DNA of 64,000 nt, from the NCBI GenBank assembly GCA_051294905.1, contig CM119383.1, positions 18,538,001-18,602,000 of the forward strand, read 5' to 3'. Positions within the stretch are counted from its first letter, which is position 1. Each line of letters starts with the position of its first letter. Source of the stretch: Botryllus schlosseri. Its lineage: Eukaryota. Positions 37,301 to 58,531 of this stretch are shown in pieces. The notes under the pieces are model-generated. The model had not been told where the DNA came from. It did no database searches and saw nothing but the letters and a program-made list of their open reading frames with translations. A program made the position numbers and the translations under genes.

Positions 37301-38496
37301 CCAATCCCAACGCGAAAAAAAATATTTATTTGACCGTTTATACATTTTGACATGTTCATGGGAAACTGGCATTGCTGTCACGGTGAACACTGGTTGGTTG
37401 TTGATTGTAAAACTAAGAAGCGCAAATTATATTTTGCTGTATGCTTGCCAGGTCTCAATAACAATGTACTGTAATTGAAATTGTAATTAGGCAAACTTTT
37501 TATCAAATTACAATTACACAAAATTAAAATGCTTCAATTGCAATTATAATTGCATGAAACATGTAATAAAATACATTCAGCTCAATTACAAATTACAATT
37601 GATCCAACTCCAATACTCATGACTGAAAAACCACGTTAACTGGTACCGGACAGCATTCGCACCTTCCTGCGAACGGAATTTGATGATCCCGAAACCGTTG
37701 ATACATATATATTACATCGTTATACAAACTCGAAAACACATGAAAGTATCTGCTATACCACAAATCCTATGTCGATGCATCTTTGCCTTTCATACTCCAT
37801 AGTTGTCGAACGCAGTTTTCACTTGCGATATAGAGGTTCGAGGCCTGGTATCACATGGGACGGAATTAGCAACAGTGTCAATTGTACCGTTTGGAAGCAG
37901 ATTCATACAAAAAGAGTATGAACTGCATAATGTCAGAAGGCTTTTCAATTGATATCCATATTGAGGTAGCTATTCATCGCCGAGAACGTGTAATGCATGC
38001 ATACTGTACAGGCAATTATATTTGCTACATATATATTCGTGTCATTCAAAATGATAGATCCATACCGATAATATTCATTCTTTTCAACACTGCGATGGAT
38101 CTTATCAAAATTAAGACATCAAGATGAGTTTTCAATTGTTCATCGCAAAGGCCGATGTGAGAGGTCACTATCGTATTTGCTTCAGATCTTGAAAGAAAAG
38201 ACAGATTAATCAGATTATATCTTGTACTTGAAATCATTCACCGAAGCAGTTATTACTGGAGGTCTGGTGGTCGAGTGAAGTCAGCTAAGAGAAAGAGATA
38301 CGGTATTCTTTTTCGCCTGCACCATCGAGATGCTTTGACGACGGAGCACACCCATTTTTCTCCTCCATGCTATCCGTGATTGCCGATCGGGAACACATAT
38401 ACTATTCACCTGATTTCCCGGAACATGTGCAACACGTCCCATTTCATGTTTCCCCATGAAATAATCGATTTCTTTCATGTGTAACACTAACATGAA

Positions 38497-38512
38497 TCCC
38501 TTTTTTTCTTTT
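38497..38512 (-). promoter_or_regulatory. Candidate polypurine tract (plus-strand primer)
   Basis: Minus strand AAAAGAAAAAAAGGGA lies about 155 nt after the pol stop and is followed by TTCA-TGTTAGTG. Confidence 0.55.
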
Positions 38513-38668
38513 AATTTATTCTCTCGTATTAAGTGCACGCCTACTTATTCAGCATTTCTTTCTATGACGCGTTTTAGGTTTTGTCCAACTGAATACCCCG
38601 TGCATCCAATCCCTGAAAGTTCAACACAACTTTTTCGTGAGCACAAGAACGACCACCCCGCGCTATTT

Positions 38669-41600
38669 TCAATCCCCCATTTGCAATAGTTTCCCCGGAA
38701 TTGGCCCTTCACAAAGCACAACATCGGGATTAGGAGACTGAAGAAGTTCGAGACCCTCAGCCTGCAGGTCCACCGCATTCATGCTGATGACAGTTTTCCG
38801 GCCTCGCGTCTTTGTCGTTTTCGTTTTACTAAGGTGGACGAATTTCCGCTTCATCCTTTCGATCCCTTCCTTCAGTAGGGCTTTTGCGTTTGATTCGGTC
38901 GTCACATGATACAGTATTCCGTCACCTCTATACTCTTTATACGGGGGAGGTGACCCTTTTGTATGACCATGTGCGGCGGCCAAACCACGATGGACAGCTA
39001 CGGCTCTGTCGCACCTTTCCATGACAGACTTGACATCCGTGATACTTATTCTCTTCCCCAATTTCTGCGTTAATATTTCGGAGATACTTTCCCAAGGGTG
39101 GTACCCGTCAACCGACTGGTTGCAATGTTCATGACGACAATGAAACATCAACATTCGCTGTATCCTCTCCTCTAGCTGCCCTTTCAAAGGATGCGGGAGT
39201 TCCTTTTTTCTTGGTATCGTGGCCCAAACATGCGGATCGTCATCCCCCGCGGCCATTTCCATCCAATAAGATCGGGACAACCCATCTGACGTAAATACTT
39301 GTAACGTACTTAAATGGATTACCTCCTTTATTTGGAATCCGGAAAGATGATTGAGCCACCTTTGAATTAGAGGTTTTGGGCTCGGGTTTTTAGCTGTATC
39401 CGCCATTCTTTTGAGGAGCCCAAACACGCCCGTGTTATCAGTAATTATAGTAAAGGGTAAGGCGCGCAACATCGACTGCCACTTTTCCACCGAATCTTTT
39501 AGGGCTTTCAGTTCTTTTGTGCACGGATCATAAGCTCTCGCAGCTGGAGTTACCCACTTCTGACTATAGTAGGCGATCGGGTACACATTTTTGAAAGGGG
39601 GTTTACCTCCAATTTCCGTCTGAAAAATTATGGAGCCAAACCCTACATCTGAAGCATCGGTTTCCACAAAAATAGGAAGTACTGGATCCAAATGATATAA
39701 TACACGGGTACTGTCGAGGGCGGCTTGCGCAACCTTGTAGTCACGCAGCAATTCTTCGTTCCATAGCACTGGCGTCATTCTTCCCTGAGTTGCCGGAACT
39801 TTCCCCGTTAGCGCATCAAATTTGGCTAGCTTCAGGCTTAACTCAGGGATATGCTCAGAGATGTAGCGGAGAGCCCCAATCCATCCCCGCAATTCATATA
39901 TGTTCCGGGGTGGCGAGAGTTCTCGGAGGGCCCTTATCCTTTCGGGTTGTACTTCTATTTCTTTGCCCGTCAGTGTCGCACCCAGTAAATTTACCTTCCG
40001 CTTTCCGATATAGCATTTATTGATGCTGACCGTCAATTTCATTTTTGCCAGTTGCTCAAAAACCAGTCGTAGGAGCAGTAAATGATCGTCTATCGTCTTT
40101 GTACTCAGGAAAATATCGTCTATGTAGGCCTCCATAGGCGTCGCATTCTCCTCATCCGACCGGTCATTTTGCTTCATGTGTTTGCGATACTTCTCCGTGA
40201 CGGGTTTCACCAAGCATTCTTGCATGTTAGAGGTCCAAAGGGCAACCGCTGTCTTTAGCCCCATAACCATCTTACGCCATCTTACGTGCATTCCTTTAAT
40301 GGCTATGCCTACATATTGTTTGGATCTTTCTGTGATATCCATGTGAAAGTAGGCTTTTTTCAAATCTAAGAGGGAAAGCACTCCTCTACCTTGGGCGAGT
40401 TGCTTTACATCCGGTACTAAGGGCGGAGGTACTTCTATTGACTTAATGGCCGCATTAAGGGGCTGGAGGTTTTGTACCACCCTCCATGCTTGCTTCCATC
40501 CGCCTTCCTGTTTTTGCCTCTCATTCATTTTTTGTGGAACAACAAAAATAGCTAGTTTCCACTCGGCGAACCCTTGCTCAATTATTCCCAAATCCAAGAA
40601 GTTGTCTACTGCCTCTTTTAAGGCCTTCGCCTGGCCCTCCCCCTTCAGATTATAAGGACCAGAAACGAAGGGTTTGGTGGAGGGGTCCTTGAGTTCGATA
40701 TCACACTTATACTTCATGGCTTGAGGAGCTCGCAAGTGGCCACGCAGATCTTCTAGTTCCCTAGCGAAAGGTTCATAGACGCTTTTCCAGATTTCGTCGG
40801 CGATCAAGGTATTTTCTGGCGTAGTCAAGTCAGGGGGCTTATACGGCAATTTCGCTAGTTCGACTGATTGTGTGCACAGTAGCTCAAGTTCAGTTTTCAC
40901 CTCGGGGTTGGTGCCCTCTTGTAGTACGTACGTGGTTACCGGACTGTTCATCCTTTTGTTTGGCTTATGCGGTAATCTGAGTTCTGGTGTTGGCGGAGAG
41001 AGAGCGAGGTCCTTTTCCGTCAGCGGGACTTCCCAACCTATTCGTGTTAACCTCTGATCTCGGCGCGTGCCCACGCCTAACGTCACGCCGCCGAAATTTT
41101 GATCCGACGGGGGCCCTTGTTCTGGAGAGACTTGCATCCTAAAATCCCCAGACTCCTCTTTAGTCACTTCTGGGCTATTATCCAGAAAGTGAGTAGTAGC
41201 TGCTTTGGAATTAATATTGAGCGAAGCAGGCGTAACGGCGGCTGCCGTGAGGTCATTCCACATCGGCGCCTCACGTTCATCTGCACACACAGTTTCGCCT
41301 ACATCCTCGTGGTCTCCGTGATTACTTTGACCACAGTTCGCGTCAGCGGGGCTTCCACGCTCGGCACGAAATCGAGTGGTGTCAGCAGGCCTTCCTTGCT
41401 CGGCACCTAAAGAGTCTCTTTCATTTATTGTAACGCCAGCGGTATTCACCGTCCCAACGTTTGCGTCAGTGGCCCTTGCCACCTCGACGCTCTTTGCTAC
41501 ATCATTGGAGTATTTCTCAATTGCTTGCACTCCATTTGCGTCAGCGGGACTTCCTCGCTCGGCGCGATGTCGGTGGGTGTCAGCAGGCCTTCCGTGCTCG

Positions 41601-42391
41601 GCACCTAAAGAGTCTCTTTTTTTTGTTTTAACGTCAGTGGGTTTTACCGACTCAACGTTTGCGTCAGCGGCCCTTGCCGTCTCGACGCTCCCTTGTTCTG
41701 CAGCTTTCACCAACCCATCCTTGGTCACAGCTTTGCAAGGACTGTTCCCAATTCTGGTTCCATTTCTTTCGTCGCATAATTTCATACTATGTACTGTTGC
41801 CAATGACAATTCTTCATTAGCAGTGGATGGAGTTTTAAATTCAGTGTCTATACTTGGTAACTGTTGTACTTTGTCAATCCATTTCAACCCCACTATATTA
41901 AGAGGAACTCCTTTGCCAGTTGCAAATGGAACTTGCAACCCGTCAAGAGGTACTATTACCAGAGAGTCGACTCGGGACGAGCCTCCTATTCCGCGCAATT
42001 TCATATCAAGGGGCTGTCGTTCAGCCCAGCTTCTCGGATATTTATGTTTTACTACGCTTTTCATAATCAAATTGGGGATACTGCCAGTATCGGCTAGGAA
42101 TTTAGTGTCTGTGTTTGTATCCACTAGGTATAAAAGTTGTCCACCGAATAATTCCATGAAATCCGGCTGTAGGGGGTTGTCCGGTGAATCAAGGAATGTA
42201 AATAAAGGTAACGAGGCATTATGTACAGTTTTAACGTGTTGGGGTAATATTGTCTCTGGGAGCTGATTTACCGGATCAATCAGCGCCCCCAACCGTTTTT
42301 TGATAAGCGTAAGCCTTGTTCTAATTCCTCCTCGGTCCAGTAAGAGGCGGCGTATTGGCGCGGCTCTCGACCGTATGAAGGCGCAATCCAA
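38669..42391 (-). CDS. pol: Pol polyprotein: aspartic protease, repeat linker, RT, RNase H and Tpt1/KptA-like domain; probably made as Gag-Pol by -1 frameshift near 42295
   Basis: Protease LADTGS, GIGG flap and NIVGLKWI. RT LDLKKAY, MGLKTA and YIDD (40115-40126). RNase H ETDAS, KELKAL, TDN and DGLSR. No HHCC zinc finger or DDE core anywhere in the ORF. Confidence 0.95.
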   Translation of the reverse strand: MDCAFIRSRAAPIRRLLLDRGGIRTRLTLIKKRLGALIDPVNQLPETILPQHVKTVHNASLPLFTFLDSPDNPLQPDFMELFGGQLLYLVDTNTDTKFLADTGSIPNLIMKSVVKHKYPRSWAERQPLDMKLRGIGGSSRVDSLVIVPLDGLQVPFATGKGVPLNIVGLKWIDKVQQLPSIDTEFKTPSTANEELSLATVHSMKLCDERNGTRIGNSPCKAVTKDGLVKAAEQGSVETARAADANVESVKPTDVKTKKRDSLGAEHGRPADTHRHRAERGSPADANGVQAIEKYSNDVAKSVEVARATDANVGTVNTAGVTINERDSLGAEQGRPADTTRFRAERGSPADANCGQSNHGDHEDVGETVCADEREAPMWNDLTAAAVTPASLNINSKAATTHFLDNSPEVTKEESGDFRMQVSPEQGPPSDQNFGGVTLGVGTRRDQRLTRIGWEVPLTEKDLALSPPTPELRLPHKPNKRMNSPVTTYVLQEGTNPEVKTELELLCTQSVELAKLPYKPPDLTTPENTLIADEIWKSVYEPFARELEDLRGHLRAPQAMKYKCDIELKDPSTKPFVSGPYNLKGEGQAKALKEAVDNFLDLGIIEQGFAEWKLAIFVVPQKMNERQKQEGGWKQAWRVVQNLQPLNAAIKSIEVPPPLVPDVKQLAQGRGVLSLLDLKKAYFHMDITERSKQYVGIAIKGMHVRWRKMVMGLKTAVALWTSNMQECLVKPVTEKYRKHMKQNDRSDEENATPMEAYIDDIFLSTKTIDDHLLLLRLVFEQLAKMKLTVSINKCYIGKRKVNLLGATLTGKEIEVQPERIRALRELSPPRNIYELRGWIGALRYISEHIPELSLKLAKFDALTGKVPATQGRMTPVLWNEELLRDYKVAQAALDSTRVLYHLDPVLPIFVETDASDVGFGSIIFQTEIGGKPPFKNVYPIAYYSQKWVTPAARAYDPCTKELKALKDSVEKWQSMLRALPFTIITDNTGVFGLLKRMADTAKNPSPKPLIQRWLNHLSGFQIKEVIHLSTLQVFTSDGLSRSYWMEMAAGDDDPHVWATIPRKKELPHPLKGQLEERIQRMLMFHCRHEHCNQSVDGYHPWESISEILTQKLGKRISITDVKSVMERCDRAVAVHRGLAAAHGHTKGSPPPYKEYRGDGILYHVTTESNAKALLKEGIERMKRKFVHLSKTKTTKTRGRKTVISMNAVDLQAEGLELLQSPNPDVVLCEGPIPGKLLQMGD
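38675..39165 (-). other. Tpt1/KptA (RNA 2'-phosphotransferase)-like domain at the Pol C-terminus
   Basis: Family motifs appear in order: CRH (LRH), DGYHPW (DGWV), AAAHGHT (RANQGHS), LYHVT (LYHGT), GIERMKRKFVHLS (GL..M.R..VHLS), ISMNAVDLQAEGLELLQSPNPDVVLCEGPIP (L.ID......G..F..S.NGV.L...IP). Recognised by eye. Confidence 0.85.
39270..39690 (-). other. Ty3/Gypsy-type RNase H domain
   Basis: PIFVETDASDVGFGSIIFQ...YPIAYYSQKW...Y...KELKAL...FTIITDN...RW...DGLSR, with the acidic catalytic residues present. Confidence 0.92.
39960..40680 (-). other. Reverse transcriptase domain
   Basis: PY...LDLGIIE...WKLAIFVVPQK...WRVVQNLQPLN...LDLKKAYFH...MGLKTA...YIDDIFL...KC...LLG. Confidence 0.95.
41340..41690 (-). 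repeat. In-frame tandem duplication in the PR-RT linker (153-bp copies, 198-bp period)
   Basis: 41340-41492 matches 41538-41690. The peptide SVExARAxDANV...RDSLGAExGRPADT...RAERGSPADAN occurs twice. Confidence 0.92.
41870..42130 (-). other. Retropepsin-type aspartic protease domain
   Basis: FLADTGSIPNLI (DTGS at 42080-42091), LRGIGG flap and NIVGLKWI closing motif. Confidence 0.88.
42262..42301 (-). promoter_or_regulatory. -1 ribosomal frameshift signal
   Basis: Slippery heptamer A AAA AAC (42301-42295) in the Gag frame, 6-nt spacer, then hairpin GGGCGCTGATT-GATCCGGTA-AATCAGCTCCC (10 of 11 pairs). Pol is in the -1 frame relative to Gag. Confidence 0.8.
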
Positions 42392-45213
42392 TTTACTTGA
42401 CCGTCATTTAGAATTGGATTCGCGGGTGGCCCCCTGGGACCCCATTGGCCCCTATCGTGCCAGTGGGTTCTATCTCTGTTTTTAGGTCTACTATCATAGT
42501 AGGCCTCACATAGATTCGTTCTTTCTGCCAACGGGGGAGAGCCATGGGATATGAGATACCGATCAAGGTCTGAAATCGTCAATAATCCATGGCTAGTAAG
42601 GAACGGACGCCAGTTGCGTTCAGCGGACTCCTTAAGGCGCGGTGGCACCGGTCGGACCCTCTTACGGATTATCCACCCCAATTCGCTATCTCTAGAAAGT
42701 ACCTCATTGTTTAGCCAAAGGACAAACTTGGCAATGCAATTACGGGATTGGTGTCCGGGAGCCTTGCAATAATAACATACCGAAAGAGCCTGGCCCTGCG
42801 ACGGATTCAAATACAAGCCTAAGGGGGCAAAGATATTAGCATTTCCAAGGAAATTGTACCTCTCACCTTGGCTATCCGCGATGTGACGAGCCTCCTGACT
42901 GTTGGACGGAGTGATTTGCGAGTTATCCGGCCCAACTCCAGAATCTTGTGTTCCTTCCACTCGCGGGCTTACTTGGCTCGAAGTTCCTGGTTGTTGACTG
43001 GATTGTGCTGGTCCTGAAATAGGTCCGAGCCGGAAATGGGGCTCGGCAGAACCGCCTTGTACATTCTGAGGTCGTTCCAGTCGTTTTCTAGTCGTTTGTA
43101 CTCGCCTGCTAGGTCCGCTACCACTTGCGACGTTAATCAGGGGCCGGTTTAATCTTGTGTTGCGAATAGGATTCCGGCGCGGTTGTGGAACCTGCCCCGT
43201 ATTCACAAGCGGTCGCAAGGGGACCATTCTAGGAGGTGGAGGAGGCGTTGCGTCGAATTCTGGAGGAGGATGTGATGATGGGGAGTTAGGCTGTGGAGAG
43301 ACTCCCCGTTGTCCATCTACGTTAGAGTGGGTTGGATAACTGTGTACCACAGGCCCGGCGGGTTGTACATTGTAGATATGTACGGGTGGCATAGGTGACT
43401 CGTTCTGTTTCGTCCGTCTAGCTCTCGGAACCGTCGGGTTCGATTCCCGGTCATCTTGGAACTCCGAGTTCCAGAACAGTTGAAGTTCTTCCGCGACTTT
43501 ACGCCAGGTGTTTTCTTCCCACCCCCGAATAATCAACCTGAGTGCTTCCGGCAGCTGCTGTCTCAAATTGCGGAAGAGGCGCAGTCCGTCCGGATTATCC
43601 AGAACTAGATCGTCCATGTCTATTTCTAGTTGTTTCAGGGCGCTGTTTAGTAGAGGAAGGGGTTCATCTTCCCAATGATAATTTCTTCGGAAATCGTTGA
43701 TAATTCTTTCATTGTTCACAATTCCTTGCGGGTTGGAAAGTGATAGCGACCTCATAACGGATTCCCAGCTGGCGTTTCCCGAGTTTGTGTTGAAGAAGTT
43801 TCCAAGTTGGTCAGCTTGCTCGTAACGCCCAGCATTCTTCAATTTCTTCTGCATTGCATTCATCAATATTATATCGGCATCAGTGTTACCCTCCCCGTGG
43901 TGAATTCGTCTCATCGTGTTCTCCATCCATTTAAGGAGAGGCATGTCCCCCGGATCCATCATTAACTGTATCATTTCCTTCTCGGATTGAAATCTAGCAG
44001 GTGTAGTTAGCGTGGGGTTTACTATTACCTCCATCTGTCGTGACCGCGGATGACTTGGGCGACCATCCTCACTGTCATCTGGAGTAGATGCGAAACGCGG
44101 CCTACCAGGATATTCCGAGCCATTCGGCTGATAGAAAGCATCGTAATACCCAGGTCCACGTAGGATTTCTCCGGAAGCGCCGCTACCTCCATGGAGAGGT
44201 TTCTGAGTAGCTTCCCGGAGGGTGTCTCGGGTGGATTCCATTTGTCGTTCTAGATTTCGCAGTCGAGACGTCGTCGCCCTTTCAGAATCTTCTGACGGAG
44301 CCTCAGAGTCTCCTTGATCCTCCCTTTTCCCATAGAAAGTGACGTGTTTGGCGTCATTCGATGAGTATCTTGCCCGACTACTACGTGGCTCTACATCATC
44401 CAACTTGTTGCTGCCCCGCTGCTGATTCTTTGCATCTCGGGGTCCAGACACCAGTTCTCGGAATGTGGGGAGGTGTTCGCTGCCCAATTCGGAGTCCGTC
44501 TCACTTTCCATTCTCAATGGTTCACCTGCTGTTACCCCCGTAGGTGTCCAATATGTCATGGGCGTGTTAGCAGCACCTTTGGCCTTCGTCGCCGGATGTA
44601 TGTTCTCTCTTGTCTTGAAGTTCGGAGCCAACAGAGAACGGGCAACCGGTGTCGGTCGAGACGGGGCTCCAGTCTTCACGTCTGGGTGCGTAGGGTAGAC
44701 TGCAGTTACTGTATGACAATCCAACCCCTTTTTCACGGTGAAGGTGGGCATAGGCTGACACTCCCTAACCACCTGGGTAGCCGGAGGATCATAGGCCGGA
44801 GGAGGCGCTGAGGGTACGACGGCCAGGGCGGGAGGAGGATGCGGTTTCTCTCCTACCGCCTGCATATGGGCTTTACCCAGCTCGAACTCAGTCTGCAAGA
44901 TCTCATTTAATACGTCAGTGGAAACTTTTCCACTAACCTTGGAAGTGGCGTCGCATACCGCCTTCAGATCGGCTTGAGCACGGCGGACTTCCTTCTTAGC
45001 CTTTTCAAGACCCTTAACGGCCTCAGGCAAGGTCGTTTTGACTTCTTTTAGGACTCTTGTTTGATCGGCCACATCTTTAGCAAGTTTCCGCTCTTGTTCT
45101 CGCACATCCTCGTGGCGTTTTTGGGTTGATTTAAGCAGTCTGATGCCCTGCTGTAGTTCTGTCGACGCTTCCGTTGATTTTTTCTTTTTGAACAGCTTCA
45201 TGATTCTGCGCAT
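42280..45213 (-). CDS. gag: Gag polyprotein (basic N-terminus, coiled coil, late domains, capsid-like helical region, CCHC knuckle)
   Basis: 977-aa open ORF. CYYCKAPGHQSRNC (42736-42777), PSAPPPAY (44791-44814) and a helical CA-like region at about 43470-43980. ATG in good context (GCCATG). Confidence 0.92.
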   Translation of the reverse strand: MRRIMKLFKKKKSTEASTELQQGIRLLKSTQKRHEDVREQERKLAKDVADQTRVLKEVKTTLPEAVKGLEKAKKEVRRAQADLKAVCDATSKVSGKVSTDVLNEILQTEFELGKAHMQAVGEKPHPPPALAVVPSAPPPAYDPPATQVVRECQPMPTFTVKKGLDCHTVTAVYPTHPDVKTGAPSRPTPVARSLLAPNFKTRENIHPATKAKGAANTPMTYWTPTGVTAGEPLRMESETDSELGSEHLPTFRELVSGPRDAKNQQRGSNKLDDVEPRSSRARYSSNDAKHVTFYGKREDQGDSEAPSEDSERATTSRLRNLERQMESTRDTLREATQKPLHGGSGASGEILRGPGYYDAFYQPNGSEYPGRPRFASTPDDSEDGRPSHPRSRQMEVIVNPTLTTPARFQSEKEMIQLMMDPGDMPLLKWMENTMRRIHHGEGNTDADIILMNAMQKKLKNAGRYEQADQLGNFFNTNSGNASWESVMRSLSLSNPQGIVNNERIINDFRRNYHWEDEPLPLLNSALKQLEIDMDDLVLDNPDGLRLFRNLRQQLPEALRLIIRGWEENTWRKVAEELQLFWNSEFQDDRESNPTVPRARRTKQNESPMPPVHIYNVQPAGPVVHSYPTHSNVDGQRGVSPQPNSPSSHPPPEFDATPPPPPRMVPLRPLVNTGQVPQPRRNPIRNTRLNRPLINVASGSGPSRRVQTTRKRLERPQNVQGGSAEPHFRLGPISGPAQSSQQPGTSSQVSPRVEGTQDSGVGPDNSQITPSNSQEARHIADSQGERYNFLGNANIFAPLGLYLNPSQGQALSVCYYCKAPGHQSRNCIAKFVLWLNNEVLSRDSELGWIIRKRVRPVPPRLKESAERNWRPFLTSHGLLTISDLDRYLISHGSPPLAERTNLCEAYYDSRPKNRDRTHWHDRGQWGPRGPPANPILNDGQVNWIAPSYGREPRQYAASYWTEEELEQGLRLSKNGWGR

Positions 45214-45234
45214 GGCAATAACAATAAATTGGAT

Positions 45235-45603
45235 TTATAGGCTCGTAGTTGAGTTGTCGACAGCCTGATTTCCGCTGGAAACGGTCGGGTCGTCCAAAAT
45301 AGATCGCTGTGTGGATGCGATCGAAGAGTTGTGGACGTTAATTTCAGACTCTAGGACTTTAGAGAACGAGTCTTCGGTGGCGATAAATCGACGTCCTTCA
45401 GATGCGTTTTGTGAGCCAGTCAGAACAGGGAAAGCTGTTGTAAGTCCGTTGTTAGGTCTTCCGTTTCCACTTGGAACTGTAGTTGGAGAAACCCCCGGTA
45501 CTAAATGTAGATATATTGATGACAACGTGACGAACAAGGATATTACAGACGCAATCAGGGCCACGACCAATACCGTTTTAACGATGGTCGTCTTTGAACA
45601 CAT
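45235..45603 (-). CDS. ORF1: small (122 aa) putative membrane-anchored glycoprotein upstream of gag
   Basis: ATG 33 nt after the PBS. N-terminal hydrophobic stretch VLVVALIASVISLFVTLSSIYLHLV, then an S/T-rich tail with sequons NAS, NSS and NST. Stop lies 21 nt before the gag ATG. Confidence 0.7.
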   Translation of the reverse strand: MCSKTTIVKTVLVVALIASVISLFVTLSSIYLHLVPGVSPTTVPSGNGRPNNGLTTAFPVLTGSQNASEGRRFIATEDSFSKVLESEINVHNSSIASTQRSILDDPTVSSGNQAVDNSTTSL

Positions 45604-45635
45604 TGATAGGTCCACGTGCAGCACTGGAAGTAATA

Positions 45636-45653
45636 ATCCCAGTGGTGCCTCCA
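45636..45653 (-). promoter_or_regulatory. tRNA primer-binding site (U73 tRNA, Gln-like)
   Basis: TGGAGGCACCACTGGGAT is the complement of ATCCCAGTGGTGCCT-CCA, which fits tRNA geometry (C61, 5-bp T-stem, 7-bp acceptor, U73, CCA). Confidence 0.8.
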
Positions 45654-46036
45654 GTACGTTTAGAGTGCAGCTCCAATAACGCTTGTTACTGCGAGAGTCT
45701 ACACTTGGTTCGATTTTACTTCACAGTGTTGGTTTTCCTTATCTGTGTTGATGTTGTGACCTTGTAGCATCCACAAATGGTGATCGAAGCAGTTGTAAGG
45801 GTAGCAGCAGCTAGATCCAATCAGGCAATGACCTCCAGGTCCAGAACTTAAAACTACACTGGTATAACTAGTAAGCTAAACCTTAATACAACCAAATACT
45901 CCAATTATAACCATGCAAAGAGGAATGAGGTTTCTATGGGTAAAACCTGATAAAATTGGTAAACATGCTTCAATTATATTACAAGTTTTATCTAAACCTA
46001 TTCATCAACTTGCACGATTAATAAACATTTTCAATA

Positions 46037-46146
46037 CTCCAAGGTTTGTTTACGCATATAATTCATGCGACGGCCTGTCCTGCCGAAAAGCAGCTCCAAG
46101 GTTGGTTTACACATATAATTCATGTGACGGCCTATCCTGCCGAAAA
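46037..46146. repeat. Two 53-bp direct repeats (57-bp period) upstream of the PBS
   Basis: CTCCAAGGTTTGTTTACGCATATAATTCATGCGACGGCCTGTCCTGCCGAAAA versus CTCCAAGGTTGGTTTACACATATAATTCATGTGACGGCCTATCCTGCCGAAAA (4 mismatches). Confidence 0.9.
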
Positions 46147-47043
46147 ATTCATTCATGAAATATTGTGTCATTACACAACACTCAATTACAATAGTATTTT
46201 GATCACAATCTACTATATCTCTGGGTTCGATTGTACTGGTGTTTTAAGCTTTTTATTCATTCGTATGTACCGTGTCTCACAGACCATAGATCTGATTTAC
46301 CACGAATCCTAAACTTCTATCCCGTTAGGGTGAAGGGTCCCGACACTAACATACGGCGTGGTCGGTTATAACGCCTTACTGTACGAGACGCTACAACATA
46401 GATCATTATAAACACTCATTGTAACAGGTTTGACTTTGTCGAGAACAGTGTGACGTTAGTGTAGGTAGGGGTATTTATTTTAGTAACTTAGGACACTGAA
46501 CAACGTGTCAAGGACCAGTAATTTCCTGATTTAATGTCGTTTACACATACACCCTATTTATCCCTACTGGACCCAGCTAATTGCATATATGGTAGTTAGT
46601 CACAAGTCTCACTTAGTCAAACCCTGCTATCGTCATGCACTATTAATAATAGTTTACATCAATACGGTTAACACAAAACAAACAAATGTATACTTAATCA
46701 TGTATCACTCGATTAAACGGCGACCCAAATATGTGTGTGAACAACAATACACATACCAGTACATAACGCAATGATTCAATACGTAGTAATATGACCTCAC
46801 CCCAGTCAACTACAAATGCAATTTTGCAGCGACAACTTACCATTCACATAATAAATATCCATTAACTCTAAACTATGTTCAGGGCATGAAAATGTTAGCG
46901 CCATTTAAAGCAACCTGATAGTAACTATCAAGAACATAGTGACTATAGTATTTGAACATAATAAAGCGAATTAGCTTCACTGCACAGTACTATACTTTGA
47001 TATCAGTCCACTAGACAGAAATACGTTTGTCTTGCCTGCACCG

Positions 47044-48082
47044 TCAAGCTCCATACACTTTGATCTTTTGCGATATTTTCCCATTGTAGAATATGCAGCG
47101 CTCAGCATCGGGCGAACATTCTTGACACAGGCCCAGATGTCCACAGGGGATCAGGGTAACTTCACTCCTATTATTCTTGCATTGTTTGCAAAGTATGGTT
47201 TCTTGTATAACCATCAGATTCTCAGCAATTTCTTCAACATATGCTATTTCTAATATTGATGGCGTCCCCATTCTGTTTCTAGCATAAACAGAGTTGCCCA
47301 GTCTACTCTTTGACTGTTGCGCAGTTTGTGTATTTGAATCGACTGGCACTATATCGAGTAGTATCAAAGGGTCTTTTACGACATCGTTCACAGTGAAATG
47401 AATATTTCATCGTCTGCTGGTGGCTCTTTTCTGTGTGACTTCTGCTAAATCTCATCTTGTCCAACTGCATCCTCTCAGCATCTTCCTCTGACAATCTGGT
47501 TCGAGCGACGCGTATTTGCGTTCCAGTTCGGCGATTGCAAGGTGAAATATAGGTGCCGTTTTGTCCGGGAGAACCGCGATATCGTGGAGTGGTGATTCCA
47601 TCTTCTTGTATAACTCGTTGTCCTCTCGGTACATTAGTGCTTGACGGAGCCGGCTTTCGACAAATTCGTGCGGAATGAATTAATATGTCCGTCATCGCTT
47701 TATACGATAGCTTAACTACACGGGTGTGTAGAATATCTTGATATCGTATTTGATCTGTCTTATCATTTCGAAAATGAGAATGACACTTGTACTTCATGAC
47801 GCAATTTATGCCTACGTCTATAGCACAAAATTTAACTCGGTAAAATGACATTGTCCCAAATCTTATACAGATATCGATATAACAAACGGTTGACACACCC
47901 GCTTCGTAAAACGCATGTGCCGACAGGGCGGACCTATGACTAACGTGGTTATTGATCATCGACACATCTGTTTCGGAAAACAAATGTGTGGATGGGGCCA
48001 ATTTATTTGCCATTTTCAAGTTCATGTTATTTGAAGTACACTTTCCTATGTGTTCTAGGGTCTTTTCTAACCTAATTACCAT
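47044..48082 (-). pseudogene. Intronless gene remnant ending in an IAP/MDM2-type C3HC4 RING finger
   Basis: C-terminus CKQCKNNRSEVTLIPCGHLGLCQECSPDAERCIFYNGKISQKIKVY, with the last Cys replaced by Tyr. The frame extends upstream through two TGA stops to about 47680, with a probable frameshift to ORF 47303-48082. Confidence 0.7.
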
Positions 48083-48198
48083 ACTATTTTATTCCGATTA
48101 TATATACATCACTATTACTACACATATAGGCTATCATATATATCTATTTATTCAGGTTATATATTATTTCTTCATTAAACATAGTTTAATTAAACCAG

Positions 48199-48363
48199 AT
48201 AGGGATGCCAATTCATTGAGTGTATCCTAAGACTTTATCAGTCAGCCCTATCGATTTAGTTTTCAAGGCTTCTCTGAAAAATCTATCATTTCCAGTCCTG
48301 TGCCTATTAATTTAGTCTTCCAGGCTTCTCTGGATAATCTAGCATTTCCAGTCCTGTGCCTAT
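48199..48363. repeat. Module with two tandem 56-bp cores; related copy at 50299-50400
   Basis: Core CCTATyrATTTAGTyTTCmAGGCTTCTCTGrAwAATCTAkCATTTCCAGTCCTGTG at 48247-48302 and 48303-48358, preceded by AGGGATGCCAA. Confidence 0.85.
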
Positions 48364-50445: not shown

Positions 50446-51405
50446 TCATTCAATTTCTACTTTGGTTGATTTCGATTCCTTTATACGAAACCAGCGGTTA
50501 TATATACGTCTTAACCCGGCTTCTACATCGGGGATGAGATCATCCCTCCAGGAGTCCAATTTTAGCAACTCCTCAAAAACAATATTTCCAAGGGCAATAT
50601 CATAATCGATCCTACCACGCCCTTCCAATAGGTATTCGTCCTGGACCTGCGCCAGCTTGCCAGGTGTATTCAAATTGGGTGCCAGGCAACACCATATCAT
50701 AATGGGATAGATAGTGAAAACCAAGCATTTTGCTATATTAATTCCCATGATAGTCTTTTCTGCCTCATAGGAATATCGGAACTTCCCCCCACCCCACTTT
50801 ACTTTGAGAGCTTTACCCGTCATTTCTAACATGTCATTCACAACCTTTGGACATTCGTTATGTAAGTCGTCCCCAACGGTCAAACAGCAGTACAAATGAA
50901 TCATTTCTCTACATATCTCTCTCACGTGATATATATTATTAAAAAATACAAGAGGTGATATTCCAATTCTTCCATTATTGTTTTTTGAGTACCAAGTATT
51001 TGCTGTCTCCCAACAGGGCATTAGTTCATCAAAAATTCCGTACCTCTCTTGGAACAAGTAAACTTGTTCCTGGAAAGCCAGCGCAATTTGCTCCGCCTCG
51101 TCATTCACCAGTTCAGTACTTCGTTCAGGATATTCCCGATTTTTGTCGTCGTTCTGGAGTGTACGTTCCCTTTTGCGTATTTGATAAATTTCACCACCGG
51201 CGCCGTCTCTCACAGCAGTCATTCTAAGATGCTTTATTTCAAGGATCCTTTTGAATGGAACCTTTTGTTGTATAGCAAGTACGATGTCGTCTTGGATAGT
51301 TCGTGGAGTAGTTTCGGCCTGAATCCCACACAACCTGTTCAGGCGCCACCTAATTGTACGAAAGACAAGTCCCTGTGCATTCTTAAAATTACTTAGTATA
51401 ACCAA
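50446..51405 (-). CDS. 319-aa orphan ORF (possibly viral; no recognisable domain)
   Basis: Long intronless open frame with ordinary protein composition. An in-frame ATG GAG TGA lies just upstream, suggesting a nonsense-damaged start. Confidence 0.55.
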   Translation of the reverse strand: MVILSNFKNAQGLVFRTIRWRLNRLCGIQAETTPRTIQDDIVLAIQQKVPFKRILEIKHLRMTAVRDGAGGEIYQIRKRERTLQNDDKNREYPERSTELVNDEAEQIALAFQEQVYLFQERYGIFDELMPCWETANTWYSKNNNGRIGISPLVFFNNIYHVREICREMIHLYCCLTVGDDLHNECPKVVNDMLEMTGKALKVKWGGGKFRYSYEAEKTIMGINIAKCLVFTIYPIMIWCCLAPNLNTPGKLAQVQDEYLLEGRGRIDYDIALGNIVFEELLKLDSWRDDLIPDVEAGLRRIYNRWFRIKESKSTKVEIE

Positions 51406-52253
51406 ACCAAATCACTCCATCCAATTGACTCGACTCGTGTCAAAGCTGCATCGGGGAGAGGCAATATGCGATTCACATTGTTTCCCATTATTACTTAGGG
51501 TAGTGACACGATGTCTGTGCAATTATACTTGGAGACAAACAAAGTACTGAATAAACATACCATTTCAAAAACGATTGTTCCATTGTTCACAAATTTTTAT
51601 TCTGATCTGTCCGTTAGTGCATGTTATACTTTATAGCATCACCGTTCGGTCGAGAGTCCTCGACAAGGTCACAATCTTATTGAGATATTCCGTGGTATTA
51701 ATTTCAGAGTTATAATGCTTTCCTACGATTGAATCCAGTTGATTGTCTATCTCACATAACTAGAATAAATTCGAATCTAGCAAAATTACCAATTCTAACC
51801 TTTAGATTAAACCTTCAAGGTAAAGTCATAGTGCACAGAGTATCAGTGGAGATAAACGGAGGGGTGGAATATCATATACAGCAAGTAAGGGGCTCTAAGC
51901 TTTCTTTAGGGTTATTGATGGTGAATTCCCCTCTCCAGCTAGTAAACCAACTACAATGTAGTGTATACTATGTATCGCCAATAGCTGTCTTTCTCTCCAT
52001 TATCTATGTAGGCCCACAAATACTAACACTCTCTCCCCCTCAAAAATATGGAGCCTGTCCTTCGCAGGCAACGTTTTTCCGCCATTAAACTGTTTTGCCC
52101 ATAAATTATACTAACCCTTTCGAATATGGTTAACGACTAACGAGGTAGTCTAATTAGTAATAGACTACAGCATGCTATTTCAGAATCTAGAGTGGAATAT
52201 GGTGACAACACCACACAAGATTCTCTGTTTAGTTATTTCATTATTCTTCGCAG

Positions 52254-55200
52254 AAAGAAACGGACCGAGATTCCATAGGGTTCAGAAAGGTAGCTGTTGA
52301 GTGGAAACTTTTTAACACCTTCTTCTCTTTTTTTAGCTGTCTGCTGCATTTTATAGAGTAGAGGCCGTCAACGTGCCTATTGGAATATGTTACCCCACCG
52401 AATAGTGACCGAGTTGGACTACGCCAGACTTCATGGTAGGCAAGTTATTGTTGAGTCGGCGACACTACCAATAACTCCGTCAAAAAAAAAATCCGACAGA
52501 ACCTTCAGGGGTCACTTCTAGGGTCCCTAGACTCAGTATTCACCCTAGTCCAACCGAATCTGCTTTGGTACAGGAGATATTAGATTTTTTACAAAATTTT
52601 TTGGAAAGATGACTCTACATTAGCACAACAAAAATGGTTATTTTTAGTCAACTTAAAAGCTTCAAACCTAGCCCCTACAGTGAAAACATGAGATTTTAGT
52701 CATAATAGCCTGTGGGTTGTCTTGAAAAAGTATAGCCAACCTGAGAAACCCAGGGTCATACTTGGAGACAGGACTTATCAAAACCAGTCTCACCTGTCCG
52801 ACCAAAATATGTGCTGGCTAGTACAAGCTACCATCCTATACTGGGTTAGACACTAAATCTGGATGCTGGCAATCCTTGAATACAACCCTTTTTTTGGTCT
52901 GATTATGTTGTTTCTTTAGAGATATCAACCCCAGCAAAGTCAATCCATGAAAATCTACTTGCTTGGAAAACAGGGATTCAGGTAAATAATAATCATCACG
53001 GTTTTTAGTTGGTTAACTATTTAAGCATCATCCCGTGGTTGATACCCGGTGAGTTTCATATTGGTTTGGTATACCATTCAAGCAATTCCTATTTGACGTC
53101 CCAATGATGTGGACATTATCACCCAGACATACATAGTTGCCTACTTCGATTCGTAATTACCTAGCAGTGTTCTTGCTTGAAGTTGCAAGGTGCATTTTTA
53201 AACTATTGCAAAGTGACATAGCATTATACAGCTTTAATTAATGAAAATATCCAAAAATTATAACCACCTTTCGCACAATAACAATGTAATTTACCTAGGT
53301 GATCTAGGATATAAACTACTCGGTCCAGTTGTTGTTGTGTAAGGGCTCAGACTGACAGGTGATATATTGTAGAGTTTCGTACCGTGGTTTTTATAATAAA
53401 ACCCGAATCTTGCCAGTTGCGATTTCGAAATAGGTGCGAATGTTGGCCCCCAAAGCCACCAGTATTCAAATGTTCGAATTGGAACACAAAGTATGTCACA
53501 TCATTCATCAGGCAACTGTTGCGCATTGCAAAGTTCCTCTCAACTGACACCAAGTCAACCGCCGAATGATAGGCTACCGCTTTTGGCTGCTGAAATATGT
53601 GTTCATTTATTGAATGCCACAGCCATTGCGCCTGTATAAACGGCTGCCAGCCACGTCTGAGACTGTTAGTGAAAGTTGTCCAATGTTATGACCGAAACCC
53701 CATGCCAATACTTCATCTATCTTTTCATGGAGGCCAGTTAATCACCCCTATTGTCATTGTAAATTAGGATAAGTGGAGTTTTCCATGATTAGTGGCATCA
53801 GTGAACTGGTGTTATACGTATATTGATATTCTTGTATGCATATATATATATATATATGCACATACATTCCACAACTCATGTAAGCCTTTCGTTCAGACGT
53901 TCACCTGGCCGCAGTACAGAACCCCTTGACGAAGGGTGAACAGGTGGCCCCCCTTTGACAACTAAGAGTCAGACTTGGAAGGAGACTACCGGAGTGTTTC
54001 ATCTATCCATCTACAATCCAGTGCCTTAAAAAAAAATCTTTTTGTACTCCTGGTAAGTTTGGAAATAGCTCTCCCTATGCTTGTACAAAACAATGCTTTT
54101 ACTTTTTAGGAAAGGCTAGTTGGGGCAGCTTATGATGATAGTGATGGCCTTCTGACTATACATACATCTCATGCCGAACCGAGGTAATCCTGTAACTCAA
54201 ACAAATCTTTATAACTGGTCACCCTTTTTGAATAGGTAGGGACATAACGGCAGCAAAATCATCACTAGTTGGCCTGCAATTACCGCCATACTAATAATGT
54301 TGTTCATCCAACAGTAAGCATATTGTCTTTTTCGCTTGTGACCTAACATTTGTAGATACAGTGAATCCCGCCTACTGCTCTTTCATCTACTGGCATATAG
54401 GCACAGAAAAAGGTTCAACACTTCCGGAAGTTTGAATTTCAGCGGCAGTCAAACATGGAGTAGACTTAATTTTCGAAACTTCATGCTAATTAGGTCATGG
54501 TTAGTGATGTTATTGACGGTACAAAATGTCTCTATAAGCTACTCCTTGTTCTGAATGCATTATCTAATGGTATAATGAAACCATGTTTGGAATTTGAGTC
54601 AGTTTCCATACTTGAAATATTAGAGCCCAGTACTGATTAGAAGCAATCAATCAATCCTGACTCAGTTTCAGCGTAAATTTAACCTGTCTCAGTACTTAAT
54701 CAATACTTAACGGAATATAACTACGTGACTTTGCAGGTTTTCAAAGGGACGGAATCGCCAAGTGGTTATACTGGACAAAGTTCACCAAGTGTGAGATATC
54801 AGTATAGATCGCTGTTGCAGAGATGTTGCCTGGATTGCGCAGAATCCTTATGATGTCTACTGGACTGGCAGAAAGGAATTCAGGTAAATTCAAACCTAAA
54901 AATTTCCAGTGGCTTAACTATTTGGTAGTGACCACTCTTGAGATTGAGAGCTGCGTCATTAGACTAATTCCAAAAAAAATTTAACAGAAAACGTTGCAGT
55001 TTCAATCGTTCAAGAAATTATCGATGGCTACCTTATACAACACTTGTGCGATTTTTAACTAAAATGACGTAATGCCATAGCTAATATTATGCCAACACTA
55101 TAACATCTATCCAGAAAGATTAGAAATTGCTTTGTTGTTGAATCTCCTTGGGTGTTATTTCCGAAATCAGTTCTAGTTTTATAGATCGTTACCATTGTGG

Positions 55201-57941: not shown

Positions 57942-58016
57942 GCCAGCAGTTCAACCGTAAGAGCATCACTGAATTCTCAACCAGGCCTGGCCAACCAGAA
58001 AATTTTCATCTTTTCA

Positions 58017-58531
58017 GATTAGGTTAGAATTAGAATTAGGGCATCGCAGTTTTTACCAGATTAGATCAAAATCAGAACTACCGAATTCGCAGAACTTGGA
58101 ATTTGAAATTAAATACAGTAAATACCAAGCTTGATTGATTTCAAACTACTGTGTATTCCCATGAGCATGAGATTGGTTAACGTCCGGACACCTAGCTGTG
58201 ATTGCTTTGCACTCACCTGTTCGCATGCCTTACTATTTTATTCCACACTAGCAGAAAACCCGAAACGGCTTCGGCGTTGTACTAACATATGGTTATTATT
58301 CACAATTACCACCCTGATCGCACGGACGACGTAACGTTAAAGTAATGCGGTAGCAGTTGGCAACAGATTTCCTTATGCAAGAGGGACATTCTTGTTGACT
58401 TGGCGCAAAAGTGCTGCAGGCAAAGCATTTTCAGCAAAATAATAAATTAGATCAGAATTAGATCACTTGCATTTTACTCTAATTCAGTGAAATTAGACCA
58501 CTAGAATTACCCAGTTATCCAAGTCTGTTCC
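58017..58531 (-). mobile_element. hAT derivative related to 24680-25200, inserted in the decayed block
   Basis: Reverse complement AGTGCAAAGCAATCACAGCTAGGTGTCCGGACGTTAACCAATCTCATGCTCATGGGAAT aligns with 24870-24930. The end CAGTTATCCAAGTCTG resembles 25185-25200. Confidence 0.6.

Follow-up and report, generated by a model that had tools for sequence, protein, structure and literature searches.

A gag–pol stretch without integrase in a sea squirt forms the right-hand end of a very large, multi-copy retrovirus-like element with envelope-like genes

The locus and its coding capacity

The window, by which we mean the whole 64,000-nucleotide stretch of Botryllus schlosseri DNA analysed here, contains the right-hand portion of a retrovirus-like element, read from the minus strand. 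Its features are as follows.

38390..38411, minus: right terminal inverted repeat, imperfect, about 22 bp, ending ...GTTCC-3'; end point common to independent copies
38498..38525, minus: purine tract (putative PPT) in the right subterminal region; a similar tract precedes the right end in both gene orders described below
38669..42403, minus: pol frame, without integrase; catalytic residues kept in 30–31 of 31 copies
38705..39169, minus: Tpt1/KptA-family 2'-phosphotransferase domain; PDB 7kw8, E 1.9e-8
39269–39763, minus: RNase H
39971–40495, minus: reverse transcriptase (RT)
41299–41690, minus: pol spacer with a 198-nt duplication
about 41849–42136, minus: protease (PR)
42280..45213, minus: gag, 977 aa; capsid region and CCHC knuckle
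42295..42301, minus: frameshift heptamer A-AAA-AAC, then a hairpin; identical heptamer at the gag/pol overlap of copy L019
45235..45603, minus: ORF1 of 122 aa with a hydrophobic segment near its N-terminus; three further subfamilies have homologues
45636..45653, minus: candidate primer-binding site (PBS), 18 nt beginning with TGG, some 230 nt past the leader; position matches other copies
45829..45843, minus: short GACC..GGTC hairpin about 40 nt past the leader; seen by eye in most subfamilies
45882..45905, minus: spliced leader copy, exact 24 nt, ends AG; putative 5' end of the genomic RNA
46037..46146, minus: 57-nt tandem repeats upstream of the leader; sense RNA reads
46305..46377, minus: 73-nt conserved block, possible pseudoknot; 92–96% conserved in copies about 80% alike elsewhere
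47044..47406, minus: accessory RING-finger frame; Pfam zf-C3HC4_3, E 7.4e-9
47303..48088, minus: accessory 261-aa frame; no Pfam family
50446..51411, minus: accessory 321-aa frame; no Pfam family; common to the C11 copy
51412..64000, no strand assigned: element interior, largely non-coding, with nested host repeats; other copies match it as far as the window edge
55842–56333: acidic frame in the element interior

The reading frames that the initial annotation had called intact are indeed so on the minus strand: a membrane ORF1 (frame 45235–45720, 122 aa from the ATG at 45603, one hydrophobic segment), a 977-aa Gag (frame 42280–45234, ATG at 45213), a −1 frameshift signal consisting of a slippery heptamer with a hairpin behind it, and a Pol of about 1240 aa, whose open frame encodes 1244 aa in the order PR-RT-RNaseH-Tpt1. 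The extent of the element had to be redrawn. It had been placed at 38250..46351 and considered intact; its right end lies exactly at 38390, it continues past the window edge to window-equivalent position 69072, and what this copy has lost is its left end, with neither transposase nor env1 present and env2 lacking its first part. The env2 of this copy, a mucin-rich membrane protein gene whose 5' end is cut where the copy breaks off, lies beyond the edge (L034:2169-5573, minus strand, window-equivalent 65668–69072). DNA homology places the RING-finger frame within the element. Sense RNA reads, most of them derived from related copies, map over the 57-nt tandem repeats, and the 73-nt block has no Rfam match at E<=1.

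Gag contains a two-domain capsid region at about 43429–44028 (structure model pLDDT 77.5) and a CCHC knuckle at 42736–42780 (Pfam E 5e-4). The top VIA rows for the model are mostly retroviral or Ty3-type capsids with modest Z scores of 5.0–6.4, among them MOAP1 CA (Z 6.4, rmsd 3.5, 87 aligned), MLV CA (Z 6.3, rmsd 5.9, 169 aligned), dArc and foamy CA; a Foldseek search with the model gave no match at E<=0.001. The model thus points to a Gag-type capsid fold, which alongside a nucleocapsid knuckle is one of the features by which Ortervirales are recognised. Another, RT–RNase H with an aspartic protease, is present in Pol: Pfam recognises RVT_1 (E 1.2e-16), RT_RNaseH (1.6e-16) and PTS_2-RNA, that is Tpt1 (6.3e-8), and the RT motif is YIDD. 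The protease is assigned from an LADTG motif; no Pfam protease family scores in the window Pol, and RVP scores in a sister Pol (4.8e-5). Purifying selection is evident at unsaturated synonymous sites, with dN/dS of 0.02–0.10 for RT, 0.03–0.29 for RNase H and 0.09–0.40 for Tpt1.

An HMM scan of all six frames (82 stretches of at least 65 aa from 38284 to 64000, including Gag and Pol) found neither rve nor Integrase_H2C2, after RNase H or elsewhere, and no recombinase family, bearing out the earlier reading that integrase and tyrosine recombinase are both absent. The same holds across the family: no Pol that reaches its C-terminus has an integrase, and no tyrosine recombinase occurs in the frames scanned. 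Pol ends instead in Tpt1, as it also does in relatives at 35–48% identity. Residues of this domain align with Arg16, His17, Arg64 and Arg119 of Runella Tpt1, which are essential in that enzyme (PMC6097658), and the Arg-His-Arg-Arg set is kept in 31, 31, 31 and 30 of 31 copies. As a tentative role, Tpt1 most likely caps or cleans phosphorylated RNA or DNA ends during replication.

A multi-copy family with a transposase and its insertion signature

The pol family has 70 matches at 68 loci (at least 68) in the ascidian genome, 59 of the 70 being stop-free. Two pols are 99.9% alike, marking the family as young. Copies are commonly 24–40 kb long and encode a Merlin/IS1595 DDE transposase, two envelope-like genes and accessory ORFs; the integrase-less gag–pol stretch is the right end of such a giant element. 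The transposase matches PF12762 (DDE_Tnp_IS1595, E 3.4e-12), has an N-terminal four-cysteine motif and a triad (D157, D221, E261) invariant in four of four rows, and shows a dN/dS of 0.13 in one unsaturated pair. It lies co-oriented beside 60 of the 68 pol loci, against about 0.01 expected per locus, and its identity tracks that of Pol (Spearman 0.55, n=57, copies non-independent).

In other copies the counterpart of the window's right repeat is matched by a left repeat and accompanied by target duplications. Imperfect 5'-GG..CC-3' terminal inverted repeats were present in all 25 copies tested, and both repeats and a target duplication in 20 of 20 close copies and in five of five at 53–72% Pol identity; about 10–14 of 22 repeat bases match in the distant copies. 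The duplication is 8 bp in 24 of the 25 and 8 or 9 bp in the other; mismatched control pairs gave none (0/20). Among the first 100 of 236 matches listed, 35 pairs of repeats lie 10–81 kb apart. GG..CC repeats with an 8-bp duplication are the signature of Merlin (PMC8101967). The flanks of other copies, which the initial annotation had proposed to compare, thus show 8-bp duplications and none of 4–6 bp pairing with LTRs; the family has no LTRs, its ends being inverted repeats. That annotation had also named an integrase ORF in trans within the same family as grounds for rejecting its reading, and an integration gene does exist in an unforeseen form, a class II transposase in cis. We are nearly certain of the enzyme and the signature of integration; in the proposed cycle the transposase would insert a circle where its two repeats are joined, duplicating 8 bp of target.

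Env1 carries a basic cleavage motif with a hydrophobic stretch behind it; long helices are predicted, an anchor lies at the C-terminus, and there are 15 sequons. It has no Pfam match or named homologue, its structure model reaches a pLDDT of only 33, and its membrane part gives a dN/dS of 0.08 in one unsaturated pair. Because the frames of transposase and env1 open at splice acceptors, the RNAs that encode them are probably spliced or trans-spliced. Many derivatives retain both ends and are without the RT core, transposase and env.

Spliced leader, primer site and circular gene orders

In RNA reads the 24-nt leader also begins a wide range of host mRNAs, and it corresponds to the 'Chordata 1' consensus of PMC3795323. 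It is exact in seven of seven subfamily representatives, whose flanks are only 25% and 32% identical, while its junction varies and partial leader duplications occur. The exact leader was listed at only 19 of the 42 pol loci on covered contigs, by a pattern that overlooks leaders with a C at a set position after them. Among 10 unlisted loci inspected over 301 bases, four proved exact, two had one mismatch and four had no leader within those bases. The whole leader region folds no better than shuffles (z −0.94).

The PBS had been assigned to about 46351, which falls in the conserved 73-nt block; the primer site is at 45636–45653. Its 18-mer is identical in L065 and L067, and no tRNA matching it was identified. 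At the same position the sequence of L064 is exactly complementary to tRNA-Ile(AAT) and that of L060 to tRNA-Gln, so that the PBS changes tRNA between subfamilies, with the full 18-nt complement in these two. Through L060 and L064 the sequences indicate tRNA-primed reverse transcription, a further Ortervirales feature. PBS switching, together with an exact leader whose junction varies, points to repeated reverse transcription in the ancestry of the inserted copies.

The leader–PBS unit is single and internal, and the element has no long direct repeat. Order A reads target duplication, left repeat, transposase, env1, env2, accessory and non-coding sequence, spliced leader, PBS, ORF1, gag, pol (PR-RT-RH-Tpt1), right repeat and target duplication; in order B, transposase-env1-env2 comes straight after pol, ahead of the right repeat. 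These two are circular permutations of each other, and a single circle, leader-PBS-gag-pol-transposase-env-accessory, yields all three linear gene orders by permutation. No left end was found in order-B copies, so inverted-repeat bounding is there seen on one side only. Element interiors contain nested host repeats, non-coding blocks are shuffled between subfamilies, and nested or neighbouring copies occur (C3, 13.56 Mb; C7, 15.8 Mb). RNA depth over gag and pol is about 0–1. No circle junction was found among the joints and loose ends listed from three RNA runs and one DNA run (3–6% of each RNA run read, 326 loose ends outside the listing).

Replication, relatives and significance

A quick, unrooted RT/RNase H tree, built without caulimovirid or retrovirus rows, separates 17 rows from 42 gypsy-like rows by a branch with SH-aLRT 99, in agreement with the earlier proposal of a distinct integrase-less reverse-transcribing lineage; the nearest outside row, P0111, has an integrase. 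The RT/RNase H is of Ty3/gypsy grade. Profile searches score Ty3 at 200/190 bits versus 182 for CaMV, while CaMV RT is the best match in a single-sequence PDB search (E 5.6e-16). A sister lineage in the same genome, at 43% Pol identity, has no transposase. Of its two copies read, one has both termini within gag and lacks a target duplication, and the other is a jumble of inversions; neither has a transposase, repeats or duplications.

The best explanation is an enveloped reverse-transcribing virus-like element, without integrase or LTRs, that integrates by a captured Merlin/IS1595 transposase acting on short inverted repeats. We envision that the transposase excises the unit, whose joined ends would form a circle, as a bacterial IS1595 member does (PMC12561309). 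A promoter upstream of the leader would transcribe round the circle, as caulimovirids do; host trans-splicing at the AG closing the encoded leader would add a fresh leader to the RNA 5' end, and the 3' end would extend through the encoded leader, making it a terminal redundancy. Inside a Gag particle a tRNA would then prime reverse transcription, and strand transfer at the leader would restore the circle for the transposase to insert. From their sequences, env1 may serve in fusion and env2 in attachment, which would let the element spread between cells. Purifying selection, the single internal leader–PBS, the circularly permuted orders and the permuted integrations of the sister make this whole cycle, reverse transcription through a circle and then transposase integration, a likely one. 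Against the cycle stand the missing circle junction among the joints and loose ends listed, the low RNA depth over gag and pol, the nested host repeats of the interiors, the one-sided bounding of order-B copies, the pol loci with no listed leader, the window PBS for which no tRNA match was found, and an env role read from sequence features. Moreover, an RNA genome of 24–40 kb would, to our knowledge, exceed nearly all known retroelements.

Every insertion signature is that of a DNA transposon, and a giant Merlin that carries a reverse-transcribing virus as cargo and makes new copies by cut-and-paste only, its viral genes serving an episomal or infectious phase that rarely or never feeds insertions, much as in Teratorn, would account for repeats paired across 10–81 kb, the many coreless derivatives and the scant gag/pol RNA. 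Idle cargo should decay, however, yet most pol matches are stop-free and, between subfamilies, RT evolves under strong purifying selection; with the history of reverse transcription suggested by primer and leader, we consider this reading rather unlikely. An improbable variant has reverse transcription rebuild the unit without free circles, tandem read-through or partial-RNA recombination yielding a linear product that the transposase trims and inserts. Nested or neighbouring copies and shuffled blocks fit it, and head-to-tail read-through is described for endogenous caulimovirids (PMC10377300); the tested copies are nevertheless single, each with its own target duplication, and no joined right-left repeat occurs in the loci fetched.

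The initial annotation had favoured an episomal pararetrovirus-like virus fixed by accident, without an integration enzyme. The missing integrase, the CaMV match and the resemblance of the sister lineage speak for it; the precise ends and target duplications seen throughout the family, its linked transposase (68 loci, transposase at 60, repeats and duplications in 25 of 25), and Ty3 profile scores at least equal to CaMV, make it very improbable, and for the window's lineage the target duplications rule it out. The pararetrovirus-like label suits the transposase-less sister better; the circular phase that the annotation implied is likely. Least credible of all is an ordinary Ty3/gypsy LTR element that has undergone a deletion and receives its integrase in trans: despite the Ty3/gypsy grade and the integrase of P0111, the integrase-free complete Pols, Tpt1-ended relatives, lack of LTRs and 8-bp duplications with GG..CC ends rule it out, barring LTR-bounded, integrase-bearing close relatives.

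The element shares parts with several known systems. Like Merlin/IS1595 as described in PMC8101967, it has a DDE_Tnp_IS1595 transposase, 5'-GG repeats and 8-bp duplications, and one Merlin family there also has imperfect repeats; here the repeats enclose 10–81 kb with gag, pol, env, PBS and spliced leader, and the four-cysteine motif is, according to that paper, absent from described Merlins. Unlike single-gene, DNA-only movers, it has many genes, including Gag and an RT under purifying selection. Caulimoviridae and endogenous caulimovirids (PMC10377300) share the Gag-type capsid, PR-RT-RH, tRNA primer site and lack of integrase and LTRs; the sister also shares permuted or rearranged integrations, and a circular phase is probable here too. 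This element differs in its animal host, marked as non-plant by the ascidian-type spliced leader, its envelope-like genes, its Tpt1, the absence of any movement-protein family from Pfam scans and, in the main lineage, integration of transposase type with repeats and duplications. The kuafuorterviruses and Troyka are likewise a neglected animal reverse-transcribing lineage, with LTRs, integrase, 5–6 kb and IADD/VADD/LADD (PMC11673190), in contrast to YIDD and neither integrase nor LTRs here.

Metaviridae (Ty3/gypsy) resemble the element in RT/RNase H grade, gag–pol frameshift, PBS, capsid fold and a circle order of gag-pol-(integration gene)-env; here there is no integrase or LTR pair, the tree branch is separate and the size far larger. 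Ty3/gypsy target duplications are 4–6 bp, against 8 bp here, and env-bearing Metaviridae include Oikopleura Tor. The integrase and LTRs of Retroviridae were not found. DIRS/Ngaro elements have swapped integrase for a tyrosine recombinase, probably pass through circles and have no protease or env; the swap and the supposed circles are shared, the recombinase was not found. Teratorn, a piggyBac–alloherpesvirus fusion of fish, is likewise a virus genome mobilised by a class II transposase and inverted repeats, although it is a DNA virus with a DNA polymerase, whereas here RT, Gag and Env are joined to Merlin. The combination of a Gag/Env/RT genome with a Merlin transposase and terminal inverted repeats was found in no paper.

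Taken together, we lean towards a new family-level lineage of enveloped reverse-transcribing ascidian viruses whose circular genomes would measure 24–40 kb and which would parallel the pararetroviruses in animals. One of its branches would have regained a proviral stage by capture of a Merlin transposase and inverted repeats, with the host spliced leader as the terminal redundancy for strand transfer and an NAD-dependent Tpt1 domain in the place that integrase takes in other Pols. LTR- or integrase-based annotation tools would miss such an element or split it into unrelated repeats. The division into class I and class II assumes that RT genomes integrate by integrase, tyrosine recombinase or target-primed nicking; if our reading is true, a class II transposase joins integrase, tyrosine recombinase and endonucleases as a route of retroelement integration. 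The family also offers natural transposon ends carrying tens of kilobases, and tests whether 24–40 kb can be reverse transcribed and whether Tpt1 has a viral role. Loss and replacement of integrase is the proposed route to pararetroviruses, and a transposase-less sister in the same genome as a young, abundant family makes that step directly comparable in an animal.

Coding region of the window copy

The gag-pol region of the copy in the window holds the frames that the initial annotation had described, with gag and pol overlapping at an A-AAA-AAC frameshift signal followed by a hairpin:

ORF1, minus strand of the window, 122 aa
gag, minus strand of the window, 977 aa
pol frame, minus strand of the window, 1244 aa, overlapping gag

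Pfam detects reverse transcriptase (RT) and RNase H in Pol, with Tpt1/KptA at the C-terminus, and a CCHC knuckle in Gag. The lack of an integrase or recombinase, likewise remarked at the outset, held in all 82 six-frame stretches of at least 65 aa from 38284 to 64000. The Tpt1 domain aligns with Runella Tpt1 at E 1.9e-8, and the four residues given as essential in PMC6097658 are retained in 30–31 of 31 copies; RT, RNase H and Tpt1 are all under purifying selection. The Gag core, whose structure was predicted at pLDDT 77.5, had zero Foldseek matches, and its VIA list was headed by the capsid domains of MOAP1, MLV, Arc, foamy virus, RSV and PEG10; the Z values (5.5–6.4) are modest, and it is the concordance of these rows that argues for a capsid fold. 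Gag homologues (39–41%) are annotated in Styela clava.

Two other features of the window were also seen:

8467-10341, minus strand, 624-aa frame of a host gene, with P-loop and NACHT/NLR-like motifs by eye
34709-35524, high-copy LINE 3' fragment with 95–99% copies genome-wide, lodged in another repeat

Copies, ends and transposase

The family is young and large. A Pol search of the 495-Mb assembly gave at least 70 matches at at least 68 loci, at 100% to 43% identity, a lower bound from 69 scored candidates among 1398; 59 of the matches are stop-free. Independent copies share an end point at window position 38390, and 24 of 30 loci end in ..TTCC or ..ATCC about 240–290 bases past the pol stop, followed by flanking DNA, the remaining six running on from pol into a transposase. 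Leftward, homology to other copies extends past the window edge, and the window copy runs on to a mucin-rich membrane protein gene. What had been annotated as an intact element at 38250..46351 is a truncated copy reaching a breakpoint at window-equivalent 69072, without the env1, transposase and left end present in a same-contig copy whose pol region is 99.9% identical; no left end was found for it by the target-duplication pattern. The initial annotation was in part accurate as observation and in part sound as interpretation, the actual feature being larger and stranger.

The 327-aa transposase frame that the window copy lacks is of the IS1595/Merlin type (PF12762 E 3.4e-12; Atlas 0.97). It matches the genome at 123 places, of which 106 remained for pairing with the 68 pol loci once 17 weak fragments were set aside. 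At 60 of these loci a co-oriented transposase lay either upstream of pol, within 90 kb, or downstream of it at a distance of about 100 bases, against a chance expectation of about 0.01 per locus; the window copy is among the other eight. In 20 of 20 close copies, the 8 bases of the right flank recur about 270–300 bases ahead of the distal transposase frame, and next to them come GG and an inverted repeat of 22 bp with imperfect matching (one duplication possibly 9 bp; two insertions in satellite). The same signature recurs in five of five copies at 53–72% Pol identity, whereas none of 20 mismatched control pairs had a target duplication. Genome-wide, the repeat pattern matched 236 times versus 5 for a control, and the 35 pairs in facing orientation that were selected among the first 100 matches span 10–81 kb, clustering at 12–14, 22–25 and 37–41 kb. 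According to PMC8101967, 5'-GG repeats and 8–9-bp duplications define Merlin. Fixation by accidental insertion, as initially proposed, is at odds with these repeats and duplications and with the transposase at 60 of 68 loci. YR-type integration, hinted at by the GTTCC end, was dropped on finding the target duplications.

Most 37–41 kb copies also carry a second IS1595 transposase, distant in sequence (35–38%), which lies some 15 kb in from the pol end (e.g. host contigs G000:C10:14757509-14758420 and C5:10314192-10315103) and may be a nested element or a second gene. Insertion targets often begin (G/A/C)AA, and three insertions (loci L007, L010 and L078/L079) lie in tandem satellite of one type, two sharing one 8-base site. 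The window subfamily has about ten non-autonomous derivatives that retain gag and the leader region without the RT core or a transposase match, including G000:C1:16820334-16845279, C2:30282235-30304753 and C15:3.75-3.77 Mb; both ends were seen for those located on the contigs listed. In a near-identical copy (L031, G000:C13:16465924), a deletion at an 8-base microhomology runs from mid-env2 to just before ORF1, removing the leader and sparing the primer-binding site (PBS).

Leader, primer site and gene orders

In RNA reads, many host mRNAs with no relation to one another start with the sequence of window positions 45882–45905, which is the 'Chordata 1' spliced leader of PMC3795323. Taken with the Gag homologues in Styela clava, this identifies the host as an ascidian. 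At least 181 exact copies occur in the genome, and in the elements the leader lies mostly 6–8 kb from the pol end. It is exact in seven of seven subfamily representatives, where the adjoining 24 bases agree at just 25% and 32%. Of 42 pol loci on the contigs covered, 19 had an exact leader among the matches listed; ten misses, once fetched, yielded four exact leaders, two with one mismatch and four with none in the stretch fetched. Both an SL-RNA gene and a cis splice donor were ruled out, since the following GT is not kept; an SL-RNA gene is also contradicted by the variable base after the leader. Elsewhere, the leader precedes GTAAGCATC and a hairpin at candidate true SL-RNA genes (G000:C2:1071633, C3:9575198, C5:27347453), and leader pairs with the same following sequence 1.8–1.9 kb apart (G000:C1:40613801/40615625, C2:25733026/25734975, C5:5782250/5784066) probably represent another small element with the leader within direct terminal repeats.

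The primer site follows about 180–390 bases after the leader. At L060 it is the exact 18-nt complement of tRNA-Gln, and at L064 of tRNA-Ile(AAT), as given in PMC1592299 and PMC13439101, respectively; L062 and L063 have partial forms, and the window, L065 and L067 have one 18-mer in common as their putative primer site. No tRNA genes were found in 46 loci, nor any host tRNA match for the window 18-mer. Rfam returned nothing at E<=1 for window 38000-50000. Three further features lie in or upstream of the leader region:

46305-46377, 73-nt block whose conservation far exceeds that of the adjoining sequence and which could fold into a pseudoknot and hairpin; no Rfam match, absent at the corresponding place in the C6 copy
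46897-46906, YY1-like AAATGGCGC motif and candidate promoter, kept upstream of the leader in three subfamilies, at a distance of about 1 kb in the window
48825, plus strand, after an AG, RNA joints from the spliced leader, which could reflect trans-splicing of an antisense transcript or else reads mismapped at a run of T

In order A, integrated copies read repeat-transposase-env1-env2-accessory-leader-PBS-gag-pol-repeat. Transposase directly follows pol in seven loci, and in order B, read through at one locus, pol is followed by transposase, env1, env2 and the right repeat; the left end of the order-B copy at C3 0.6 Mb was found neither in the approximately 16 kb fetched nor by pattern. In the 842-aa env1 frame a basic cleavage motif precedes a hydrophobic stretch, and the frame also has 15 sequons and an anchor at its C-terminus. 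It has an N-terminal domain in common with env2 (1049–1511 aa; 25% over 198 aa, E 8e-11), which additionally bears a mucin-like stalk and an anchor. Pfam matches neither env gene, no named protein is homologous to env1, and the predicted env1 model is too poor for a fold search, so fusion and attachment are putative roles. The accessory frames include a RING finger.

A sister lineage at 43% Pol identity, represented by two copies, has pol, a 235-aa ORF, one env and accessory ORFs, then leader-PBS-gag:

G000:C3:28661500-28684600, sister copy (L060, L061, L069)
G000:C1:23945500-23966300, sister copy (L066, L070, L071)

In one copy both termini fall within gag, no duplication is present and a deletion begins within the leader; the second copy is made up of inverted pieces in jumbled order. 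The repeat pattern was found in neither, and no transposase or integrase was detectable. The 235-aa ORF resembles a transposase by eye, but this reading was rejected, as no relationship to the transposase is detectable (BLAST E 1.1, hhalign probability 0.2). The Pol of the lineage also includes a G-patch, and its PBS is a perfect match for tRNA-Gln. Endogenous caulimovirids typically show tandem and rearranged insertions (PMC10377300). The animal pararetrovirus-like picture originally drawn for the window fits this permuted and jumbled lineage, but not the window's own, with its transposase and target duplications.

Relationships and proposed replication cycle

In a quick, unrooted RT-RNase H tree built without caulimovirid and retroviral rows, a branch with SH-aLRT 99 separates the family and its other-assembly relatives from 42 gypsy-like proteins; a PDB profile search scored Ty3 at 200/190 bits, CaMV 182, foamy virus 122 and MLV-type 108. 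By its traits, the family does not fit Metaviridae, Retroviridae, Caulimoviridae or DIRS, nor Kuafuorterviruses as described in PMC11673190. It agrees with Merlin in ends and enzyme but departs from Merlin's one-gene plan. IMG/VR scans gave zero relatives, and JGI metagenomes one related locus (L059, 4.8 kb), which stops 77 bases past pol. Among outside relatives' proteins, RNase H is followed by a dUTPase in P0046; P0003, the clade's deepest row in the unrooted tree, stops after RNase H and has neither Tpt1 nor integrase; and the C-terminus of P0039 after Tpt1 resembles, by eye, an exonuclease III/AP-endonuclease domain, which might give the clade a third means of integration. A literature search, with Repbase, Dfam and most subscription journals outside its scope, found no description of an RT/Gag/Env plus Merlin layout among the papers listed.

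As read from sequence, all three linear orders close into one circle with ordinary retroviral order. Because there is a single internal leader-PBS and no LTR, the sequence upstream of the leader could be rebuilt only via RNA running around a circle or through a tandem, and circle excision is therefore favoured. We envision that the element would be excised to a circle, that terminally redundant RNA would be made with the leader as the redundancy, that this RNA would be copied from a tRNA primer, and that the transposase would reinsert the copied element. A bacterial IS1595 element forms circles, according to PMC12561309. Counting against this cycle are the lack of a circle junction among the joints listed in reads, the near-zero gag/pol RNA in the read fractions examined and the extreme size; its main rival is a Merlin transposon moving as DNA with the virus as cargo. 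On balance we consider the whole circle cycle reasonably probable and the DNA-only alternative rather unlikely. Common to both is the demonstrated transposase-type integration of an RT/Gag/Env genome.
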